Below, in pieces: positions 15,001 to 18,000 of a DNA stretch of 28,791 bases; the stretch's first letter is position 1; every line of letters starts with the position of its first letter. The stretch covers positions 1 to 28,791 of the IMG/VR virus record IMGVR_UViG_2534682161_000017; one strand, given 5' to 3'. Source of the stretch: a virus (Duplodnaviria > Heunggongvirae > Uroviricota > Caudoviricetes). A program made the position numbers.

Positions 15001-18000
15001 GCACATGATTCCGCACATGATGAAGCCAGTAATGGTGCGGCTTTCAGCGTACATGCCGCACATGAAAGCGCACATGAAGCCGCACAAACAACCGCACATC
15101 ATGAACAAGAAGGTATTAACAAGAATATAAATAATACCCCCTACCCCCCAATGGGGGAGGCGATGGGCAGGTTAAACCTGAACGTCGCAAGGCAGAACGA
15201 ATCGACTACGAATCCTTCCTGAACGCCTACAACACCGAAGTCGGTGACAGACTTCCACACGCTGTTGCGGTCAACGAGAAACGAAAACGCCGCCTGAAGA
15301 AAATCATCCCGCAGCTGAAAACGCCAAACGTGGACGGTTTCAGAGCGTATGTCAGGGCGTTTGTGCATCAGGCCAAGCCGTTTTACTTCGGAGACAACGA
15401 CACGGGCTGGACAGCTGATTTTGATTACCTGTTGAGGGAAGATTCGTTAACGGGAGTACGGGAAGGGAAGTTTGCAGACAGGGGGATTGCATGAAACAGG
15501 ATATCGAAGCGAGCGTTATCGGTGGCCTGCTGATTGGTGGATTAACACCAACTGCCAGTGACGTTCTGGCAACGCTGGAGCCGGAAGCGTTTTCAATTCC
15601 GCTCTACCGGAAAGCCTTCGAGGTTATCCGCAAGCAGGCGAGAAACAGAAACCTAATCGACGCGCTGATGGTTGCCGAGGCGTGCGGAGAGGAGCATTTC
15701 ACGTCAATCCTGATGACCAGCAAAAACTGCCCGAGTGCCGCAAACCTGAAGGGATATGCCGGAATGGTCGCGGATAACTTTCACCGCCGTCTGGTGCTGG
15801 AAATCATGGATGAAATGCGTGAACCAATTCAGAGCGGAACCATCGACGCATCGAGTCAGGCGATGGATGAACTTGTAAAGCGTCTTTCAGCCATCAGAAA
15901 GCCCCGTGACGAGGTAAAACCTGTACGGTTATGGGAAATCATTACTGACTACACTGACACGCTTGACAGGCGTCTGAGGAACGGAGAAGAGTCCGATACC
16001 CTGAAGACCGGAATCGAAGAACTTGATGCCATCACCGGAGGGATGAACGCAGAAGACCTGGTGATAATCGCTGCTCGTCCTGGTATGGGGAAAACCGAAC
16101 TGGCGCTGAAGATTGCCGAAGGCGTTGCAAGCCGCGTTATTCCTGGTTATGACGTCCGGCGCGGAGTATTGATTTTCTCGATGGAAATGAGCGCATTGCA
16201 GATTGCAGAGCGAAGCATCGCCAACGCCGGGAGGATGTCGGTTAGCGTGCTGCGAAATCCTGCATCGATGGATGACGAAGGCTGGGCGCGTGTTGCTAAC
16301 GGCATGAGTCAGCTTGCAGATTTGGATGTATGGGTAGTCGATGCCTCGCGGTTATCGGTCGAAGAAATACGCTCAATCGCAGAACGGCACAAACAGGAAA
16401 ATCCAAACCTGTCACTCATCATGGCGGATTATCTTGGCCTGATTGAGAAGCCGAAAGCAGATCGCAACGACCTCGCAATTGCTCACATCTCCGGAAGCCT
16501 GAAGGCGATGGCGAAAGACCTGAAAACGCCTGTTATCTCCCTAAGTCAGCTTTCGCGCGATGTTGAGAAGCGACCAAATAAACGCCCGACAAACGCAGAT
16601 TTGCGTGATTCAGGAAGCATTGAACAGGACGCAGACTCAATCATCATGCTCTATCGGGAAGCGGTATATGACGAGAACAGTAGCGCCGCGCCATTTGCTG
16701 AAATCATCGTGACGAAAAACCGTTTTGGCTCGCTTGGTACGGTTTACCAGCGGTTCTGCAACGGACACTTTGTGGCATGTGACCAGGATGAAGCCAGACA
16801 GATTTGCACAGCATCAAATGCACCTGCTGCGCGTGGCAGACGATATGCACAAGGGGCTGACGTATGACCATCTACATCACTGAGCTTGTAACAGGCCTGC
16901 TGGTAATCGCAGGCCTTTTTATTTGGGGGAGAGGGAAGTCATGAAAAAACTAACCTTTGAAATTCGATCTCCGGCACATCAGCAAAACGCTATTCACGCA
17001 GTACAGCAAATCCTTCCAGACCCAACCAAACCAATCGTAGTAACCATTCAGGAACGCAACCGCAGCTTAGACCAAAACAGGAAGCTATGGGCCTGCTTAG
17101 GTGACGTCTCTCGTCAGGTTGAATGGCATGGTCGCTGGCTGGATGCAGAAAGCTGGAAGTGCGTTTTTACCGCAGCATTAAAGCAGCAGGACGTTGTTCC
17201 TAACCTTGCCGGGAATGGCTTTGTGGTAATAGGCCAGTCAACCAGCAGGATGCGTGTAAGCGAATTTGCGGAGCTATTAGAGCTTATACAGGCATTCGGT
17301 ACAGAGCGTGGCGTTAAGTGGTCAGACGAAGCGCGACTGGCTCTCGAATGGAAAGCGCGATGGGGAGACAGGGCGGCATGAGACGACAGCGACGAAGTTT
17401 CACCGACATCATCTGCGAAAACTGCAAATACCTTCCAACGAAACGCTCCAGAAATAAACGCAAGCCAATCCCAAAAGAATCTGACGTAAAAACCTTCAAC
17501 TACACGGCTCACCTGTGGGATATCCGGTGGCTAAGACATCGTGCGAGGAAATGACAATGGATTATTCACAGTTAAGTGATTTTGAAATTAACAGAATGGT
17601 AGGAGACATAATTTTTAAGGGCCTTTGGGCATGTAAGCCGGAAACGTCAGGGAATAATACCAACAAATGGTATTACGGAAACGCTGATACAACTTTTGAG
17701 CCATTAAACCATTTACCTGACTACTGCAATGATCCGAGTGCCTCATGGCCGATTATTGAGAAACACAGGATTTCTATCTTAGACCAGTTAACTGAATGGT
17801 GTGTGGATGCAAAAGGCGTAAGCCCAATATTTGATACCAGACCTCTCCGCGCCGCCATGATTGTCTTTCTCATGATGCAGGACGCCAATAATGCTTAGCC
17901 CATCCCAATCCCTTCAATACCAGAAAGAAAGCGTCGAGCGAGCTTTAACGTGCGCTAACTGCGGTCAGAAGCTGCATGTGCTGGAAGTTCACGTGTGCTC

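Follow-up and report, generated by a model that had tools for sequence, protein, structure and literature searches.

Between a replicative helicase gene and ninB in a virus of the Caudoviricetes (IMG/VR record IMGVR_UViG_2534682161_000017; the window, i.e., the whole stretch of DNA analyzed here, is 28,791 nt long) lies an open reading frame (ORF) of only 26 codons. An earlier note on this DNA proposed that the frame encodes either a genuine small membrane peptide or simply serves as a device that couples translation of its neighbors. What is this micro-ORF, and which of its properties (its peptide, its coupling to the flanking genes or the nucleotide sequence itself) is under selection?

The micro-ORF and its neighbors

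The 26-codon frame was present in the sequence and in the ORF list, together with the ATGA overlaps that the earlier note had seen at its two ends: the helicase TGA (16865-16867) overlaps the ATG of the micro-ORF in the context GT-ATGA-CC, and the ninB ATG (16941) overlaps its TGA in the context TC-ATGA-AA (Table 1). Pfam searches with the upstream product returned DnaB_C (1.2e-77) and DnaB N-terminal (4e-13) domains, and the same gene is labelled helicase in the records of P22, JEP4, and CUS-3. The order of helicase gene, micro-ORF, and ninB matches that of P22, Bp96115, and CUS-3; the micro-ORF is the first ORF of the nin region, 3' of the replication genes and directly 5' of ninB, and all lie on one strand. 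Further, compared with its CUS-3 counterpart, the O-type replication gene of the window lacks one base and is frameshifted.

Table 1. Features at the helicase-ninB junction, in positions of the window.
Feature	Position	Strand	Description	Basis
DnaB-type replicative helicase gene (P22 gene 12/HK97 gp55 type)	15491-16867	+		ORF list, Pfam
Shine-Dalgarno-like AAGGGG	16851-16856	+	7 nt 5' of ninA ATG, within helicase 3' end	
ninA micro-ORF	16864-16944	+	26 codons; ATG at 16864, TGA stop at 16942-16944	Sequence, ORF list
Predicted tR2 hairpin	16893-16916	+	Arms AGGCCTGC (16893-16900) and GCAGGCCT (16909-16916); 8-nt loop TGGTAATC	Terminator scan
Predicted tR2 T-tract	16916-16924	+	TTTTTATTT	Sequence, terminator scan
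ninB Shine-Dalgarno region	16925-16938	+	GGGGGAGAGGGAAG; doubles as ninA codons 21-25	
ninB (Orf-family recombination mediator)	16941-17381	+		Pfam NinB 1.1e-54; record annotations

A 281-nt query spanning the ORF matched 410 phage records (P22, 93.6%; JEP4, 98.2%), and the peptide matched phrog_5907 with an E-value of 1.4e-19, covering 26 of the 27 profile positions. Exactly this ORF is annotated as ninA in the P22 records X78401 and BK000583; ninA is also annotated in CUS-3 (as a variant allele) and in UAB_Phi20, and the nin gene lists published for lambda and P22 include it. The peptide shares 25 of its 26 residues with P22 NinA and as many with the product of the lambda ORF. The 26-codon ORF is the lambdoid-phage gene ninA, already named and an ordinary component of this phage family. 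Searches of Pfam, NCBIfam, and PDB with the peptide found no relative, and a search of the whole window against Rfam at the gathering threshold found no family. According to the literature, genes of the nin region are generally linked in ATGA chains, and the region as a whole, which is under N antitermination, is dispensable for plaque formation.

Among 5426 complete E. coli genomes, 1982 (~37%) contained the 81-nt sequence, with up to 5 copies per genome and ~2,900 copies overall, and NCBI's pipeline leaves these copies unannotated; several phage records omit ninA as well. Standard annotation pipelines thus skip a micro-gene that is very common in prophages. A NinB scan of genome contigs hit mainly unrelated assemblies contaminated with phage lambda; many "bacterial" contigs with a nin region are lambda contamination, and only a few real prophages were informative.

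The tR2 hairpin and its alleles

As judged from its sequence, the middle third of ninA is the intrinsic (Rho-independent) terminator tR2. A terminator scan found a stem of eight pairs, six of them G-C, as the sole strong terminator-like site in the neighborhood. The hairpin occupies nt 30-53 of the ORF and, with its T-tract, nt 30-61 (within codons 10-21), while the ninA stop codon occupies nt 79-81; the expected 3' ends of terminated transcripts would therefore fall in codons 20-21, ahead of that stop codon. Hairpin and T-tract are base-for-base identical to lambda tR2, and this identity runs from nt 28 of the ORF to the ninB start. The element is also annotated inside P22 ninA, as "terminator tR2" or "terminator, similar to phage lambda." Folding of the complete 81-nt ORF gave a stability that was not unusual (z = -1.5); only the local hairpin is meaningful.

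The terminator and the peptide share the same letters. Residues 11-21 (GLLVIAGLFIW), over half of the predicted helix, are the hairpin and T-tract read in frame, and residues 22-25 are the ninB Shine-Dalgarno region read in frame. That the 3' two-thirds of ninA are so extremely conserved at the nucleotide level can be attributed to the terminator that lies there, and the AGAGAGGGAAGTC portion of the ninB Shine-Dalgarno region is kept before ninB even where ninA and tR2 do not adjoin it. The earlier note's pair of alternatives, membrane peptide or coupling device, drew partial support for each member, as detailed below, but it overlooked both the identity of the ORF as ninA and the presence of tR2; a terminator that lies within a gene can be missed when only ORFs are read. 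The ORF had already been described and named in earlier work, as had its ATGA coupling and the terminator inside it, and nothing in the element itself is new. Nevertheless, ninA/tR2 is a compact natural case of one sequence serving as terminator and coding region.

The earlier note had looked to related phages for conservation of the frame, and it is kept in relatives. Of 80 viral contigs sampled by way of NinB, 79 had both the 5' end of ninA and a terminator hairpin ahead of ninB; the remaining contig was too short for judgement. For more distant ninB genes (81% identity), neither a terminator nor a ninA-like small hydrophobic ORF was detected in the 1.5 kb upstream. Scans anchored on either half of the ORF recovered several alleles that have N-terminal codons in common and carry differing hairpins at one place. 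Allele T1 (GLLVIAGL) has the stem found in the window, T2 (GAIYTVAL) pairs GGGGCTATT with AGTAGCCC, T4 (GLSATIGL) pairs GGCCTATC with GATAGGCC, and T5 (GLLITVGL) pairs GGCCTACT with AGTAGGCC; variants of T2 encode GATYTVAL or GATYTVAF.

T1, T4, and T5 share a pairing register, and among them three stem pairs were altered on both sides. Their covariation score was reached by none of 500 shuffles, and controls with a slid register gave no both-side changes, save for one pair at +2. Within the T2 hairpin alone, covariation was not significant (225 of 500 shuffles). Since the stem changes in T1, T4, and T5 are compensatory, the comparison indicates that the terminator structure itself is under selection. 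These same changes freely alter residues in the middle of the helix (e.g., I to T).

A different kind of variant was found in 28 viral contigs with six upstream contexts, in which a 665-bp insertion in ninA carries a homing-endonuclease gene of the HNH_3/AP2 type (Pfam HNH_3, 2.9e-15; AP2, 1.6e-06, below Pfam's cut-off). A further candidate, L366, was rejected as an independent context of this cassette; an IS66-like insertion lies at the cassette's left border.

Translation signals and codon-level evidence

By chance alone, an open frame of 26 codons in a 73-nt gap would be unremarkable. However, hundreds of relatives keep ninA as an ORF, in many different flanking contexts, which makes it more than a chance frame. 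Approximately eight unrelated upstream gene ends, including those of helicase, ren, and ORF30, join the ninA ATG; in each case, the upstream stop codon overlaps or adjoins the ATG, and a GGAG-type motif lies 6-8 nt 5' of it. At the other end, the junction with the following gene takes the forms ATGA, GTGA, GTGGCTGA, TAAATG, and ATGGTTAA, among others. The length of ninA varies from 22 to 35 codons across alleles, and at almost all junctions no more than ~12 nt separate the end of the ORF from the next start; only in L244 and L373 does the frame continue into the next gene. Start and stop coupling was retained in every context examined, which gives some support to the coupling alternative of the earlier note.

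Experiments on lambda provide direct information on translation of ninA and its effect on tR2, the terminator there lying 30 bp past the NinA AUG and 16 bp ahead of the NinA stop codon (Li et al., 2016; PMC4824070). The NinA initiation site was found to be "not weak"; in a NinA construct, expression of an upstream reporter was halved and was restored by mutation of the NinA ribosome-binding site or AUG, and tR2-terminated transcripts of this construct lack a stop codon (PMC4824070). Initiation at the lambda copy has thus been shown experimentally, which speaks to the earlier note's second concern, that the frame might go untranslated. Translation of ninA cut tR2 efficiency by only ~10%, since the ribosome cannot reach the polymerase within 30 nt (PMC4824070). 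With an upstream stop codon at least 28-30 nt away, tR2 efficiency in vivo was ~0.9; with a stop codon at 18 nt and the natural upstream sequence, it was ~0.8; and when a ribosome reached to within 5 nt of the hairpin, it fell from ~90% to <10% (PMC4824070). Terminators within the first 100 nt of an ORF are spared repression by ribosomes (PMC4824070). In the window, the helicase stop codon lies 25 nt ahead of the tR2 hairpin.

Codons 2-10 lie outside the hairpin, and here we compared substitutions among alleles. The comparison was confined to hairpin-anchored samples, which are unbiased for these codons; alleles found with peptide-preserving 5' patterns were left out, since as search sets such patterns favor synonymous variation. 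Synonymous alleles numbered 12 (21 possible) and non-synonymous alleles also 12 (60 possible; P = 0.01, or ~0.03 with transition bias allowed for), the alleles being closely related and recombining. Only 1 of the 12 non-synonymous changes was radical, compared with 40% expected (P = 0.02), again among alleles that are not phylogenetically independent, and changes were distributed 9:3:12 over the three codon positions. The lean toward synonymous and conservative substitutions agrees with the peptide alternative of the earlier note. Since the alleles are closely related and recombining, these codon statistics are modest, i.e., supportive but not decisive. In rare alleles the frame is shifted, interrupted by a nonsense codon, or fused in frame to the next gene; therefore, an intact ORF is not obligatory.

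The transmembrane helix predicted in the earlier note was also recovered as a hydrophobic segment. Over the best 19-residue segment (residues 2-20), which contains Glu7, Kyte-Doolittle hydropathy averages 2.03, compared with a classical cut-off of ~1.6 for a membrane span; the NinA peptide may insert into a membrane. After the T-tract, the tail is either basic (GRGKS) or acidic (LDEDINQ...), depending on the allele, which argues against a fixed membrane topology.

A probable dual-use element and its alternatives

Taken together, these results suggest that ninA is probably a translated micro-ORF laid over an N-antitermination checkpoint, which relays ribosomes to ninB. According to this model, tR2 would be the first strong stop on the pR transcript between the replication genes and the nin/Q genes, and would be read through only by N-modified RNA polymerase (gp24-modified in P22). 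ninA would be a real cistron, having its own Shine-Dalgarno sequence, an ATG fused to the stop codon of whichever gene lies upstream, and a stop codon on or beside the start of whichever gene follows. On read-through transcripts, ribosomes would be passed from the helicase gene over the terminator to ninB, and we infer that such a relay operates in this phage. Translation would hardly weaken termination, since the upstream stop codon precedes the hairpin by 25 nt and a ribosome initiating at ninA could not catch the polymerase within 30 nt, while terminated transcripts would carry ninA without a stop codon. The product would be a hydrophobic peptide of 24-35 residues that begins with the invariant N-terminus MT-x-YITELITG, continues through residues encoded by the hairpin and T-tract, and ends in a tail that differs according to the neighboring gene.

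Two rival explanations each emphasize one side of this model. In the first, selection would act mainly on the peptide: NinA would be a single-pass membrane micro-protein with an activity of its own, and the terminator would merely share its coding sequence. The bias in codons 2-10 and the hydropathy of residues 2-20 are consistent with this, as is the observation that the hairpin-encoded residues are never charged in five alleles (T1, T4, T5, T2, and its GATYTVAL variant). Alleles split by the homing-endonuclease gene point the same way, since their new 34-codon ORF continues as LSLLMVLTVYII, a hydrophobic stretch made without the terminator; its hydropathy was reached by only 0.035% of composition-matched random sequences and by 0.5% of real windows of the same insertion. 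Against this explanation stand a C-terminal tail that differs in length, charge, and frame and hairpin-compensating changes that freely alter the middle of the helix. The frameshifted and nonsense alleles, the empty domain and structure searches, and a region that can be deleted with no known phenotype also weigh against it. We therefore regard a primary role for the peptide as possible but hold it only tentatively.

In the second explanation, ninA is purely a coupling or spacer device that carries ribosomes over the terminator, and the peptide arises as a by-product with no function, which owes its hydrophobicity to the reading of a GC-rich stem and a T-tract in that frame. The ORF does end at the next start whatever its length or tail, residues 11-21 do come from the hairpin and T-tract, and genes throughout the nin region are likewise typically joined by ATGA. 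Yet, were an open frame all that mattered, the bias in codons 2-10 would be unexpected, and the homing-endonuclease-split allele stays hydrophobic with the terminator gone. Moreover, the frame beginning at nt 30 also crosses the terminator without a stop codon, but yields the polar, basic RPAGNRRPFYLG; therefore, hydrophobicity is specific to the ninA frame and is not forced by the terminator. This explanation, too, may hold, although we would not favor it.

An extension of the dual-use model would give the peptide and its unfinished message functions of their own. NinA would then be a functional hydrophobic micro-protein in a case of true dual coding, its coding sequence having co-evolved with a set of interchangeable terminator hairpins, and translation of ninA would turn every pR transcript that lacks antitermination into non-stop mRNA, since termination at tR2 leaves a transcript that stops short of the ninA stop codon. 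Recruitment of tmRNA and the decay associated with it would thereby limit replication-gene mRNA when N is lacking, and full-length NinA would be made only after antitermination. We consider this extension unlikely.

The position of tR2 wholly within a short translated ORF also recalls a leader-peptide attenuator of the pyrBI kind, in which a ribosome closely trailing the polymerase would cover the left arm of tR2 such that translation regulates read-through; the strong repression of tR2 by a ribosome a few nucleotides from its hairpin would fit such a scheme (PMC4824070). However, silencing of the NinA start in lambda constructs shifts tR2 efficiency by only the ~10% noted above, and tR2 lies in that early part of an ORF in which terminators escape ribosome repression (PMC4824070). 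Since, in addition, we identified no sensing element or pause site here, and the known control of read-through is N antitermination, attenuation of this kind appears quite improbable. Finally, that the ORF is accidental and untranslated, with its conservation due entirely to tR2 and the ninB ribosome-binding site, would account for the 3' two-thirds of the sequence and would agree with its omission by NCBI's pipeline in E. coli and by several phage records, but is very hard to reconcile with a start codon, Shine-Dalgarno sequence, and stop overlap conserved in ~8 upstream contexts, a stop codon that sits at the next start over many downstream junctions, the codon-position bias, and the experimentally active lambda initiation site (PMC4824070).

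With ninA read as a dual-use element, the peptide is left without an assigned function, as it has been since 1982, and the hairpin-swap and homing-endonuclease-split alleles offer natural variants with which its importance could be tested. For specialists, the hairpin-swap alleles are of moderate interest.

Several known systems bear comparison with ninA. Type I toxins and other small hydrophobic bacterial and phage peptides of 20-35 residues appear similar in size and in their single hydrophobic helix with a short polar tail. NinA differs from them in its variable tail and is not known to be toxic or to be paired with an antisense RNA, and the Pfam, NCBIfam, and PDB searches gave no sequence relationship between them. 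Attenuators of the pyrBI type resemble ninA in having an intrinsic terminator in a short translated ORF, where a close ribosome could in principle block the hairpin; they differ in that ninA is coupled to flanking genes rather than being a free-standing leader, and in that its control is exerted by N antitermination.

The closest counterparts are the ninA genes of lambda and P22. In lambda, the ORF is unannotated in NC_001416 but is ATGA-coupled to the ren stop codon and to ninB, and its product differs from that of the window by one residue (V9 versus I9). The upstream partner is ren in lambda, whereas it is a DnaB-type helicase gene here, as in P22 and HK97. Lambda tR2, whose efficiency was measured in vivo (Li et al., 2016; PMC4824070), shows no sequence difference from the predicted terminator of the window, with its AGGCCTGC-TGGTAATC-GCAGGCCT hairpin and TTTTTATTT tract. 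P22 ninA (Kroger and Hobom, 1982; X78401, BK000583; PHROG 5907) has the same 26 codons, the same place before ninB, the same ATGA overlaps, and the same internal terminator, and its product differs from that of the window only at the last residue (S26 versus T26).

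A homing-endonuclease cassette within ninA

Comparison of related loci showed that ninA, the 26-codon micro-ORF between the helicase gene and ninB, is interrupted in four contigs (L119, L053, L193 and L223) and in 24 further IMG/VR contigs by an insertion of 665 bp that is AT-rich (33% GC). The insertion encodes a homing endonuclease of 203 aa with a match to Pfam HNH_3 (2.9e-15), and an AP2 match (1.6e-06) fell under Pfam's cut-off. The cassette lies after ninA codon 10-11 and before the hairpin of tR2, the intrinsic terminator inside ninA, such that the stop codon of the endonuclease gene directly precedes this hairpin. 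In the same alleles, the N-terminal ninA codons begin a fusion that forms a new hydrophobic ORF of 34 codons. Six different genes were found upstream of the cassette-split ninA among the IMG/VR contigs. In a separate contig, L366, an IS66-like element with a transposase C-terminus and a terminal repeat was observed, its insertion site being the exact left border of the cassette; the N-terminal ninA codons were lost through this insertion.

Coordinates of ninA-associated features and of the O-type gene
Feature	Location	Remark
Homing-endonuclease insertion locus in ninA	L119 6334..7070	
IS66-like element	L366, around 350..470 (minus strand)	
Alternative ninA alleles	ninA region of L058, L245, L068, L244, L025, L368, L369, L372, L376	
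AUGAC, ninA start	window 16864-16868	
GUCAU, ninB start region	window 16938-16942	
O-type replication initiator gene	window 14548..15494	compared with CUS-3 O gene
ORF	window 14548..15222	front part of O-type gene
GTG-started ORF	window 15330..15494	C-terminal part of O-type gene, different frame

Start-region pairing and the O-type gene

The AUGAC of the ninA start is the reverse complement of GUCAU in the ninB start region, and the two pair with each other when the 81-nt ninA RNA is folded to minimum energy. Because the stability of this fold fell short of significance (z = -1.5), and because phage P22 has the more weakly pairing GACAU in place of GUCAU, the pairing is probably incidental.

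The O-type gene of the window and the O gene of phage CUS-3, which is 948 nt long, share 98% identity. Relative to CUS-3, one C is missing near 15136 and the reading frame is therefore broken; the gene is a pseudogene of a defective prophage, unless the missing base is a sequencing error.

Occurrence and alleles of ninA

Among 5426 complete E. coli genomes, 1982 contain the ninA ORF, some in as many as five copies. At the 12 E. coli RefSeq hits sampled (H41-H52), ninA was annotated in none, the only annotated genes being the neighbours ren, helicase or ninB. Separately, NinB at 95-100% identity was encoded in contigs L006-L019, L023 and L026-L031, which come from assemblies of unrelated organisms (including Pseudomonas, Oceanobacillus, Bradyrhizobium, Shewanella, Nocardioides and Veillonella); several of them measure ~48.4-48.5 kb, at a coverage of ~1x or only a few-fold. 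The contigs appear to stem from contaminating phage lambda DNA and not from genuine prophages.

In other ninA alleles, the place of tR2 is taken by a different terminator hairpin, of type 2, 4 or 5, which keeps the position and the reading frame; in two contigs, L244 and L373, ninA is fused in frame to the downstream gene. In CUS-3, the type-2 allele carries the annotation ninA.
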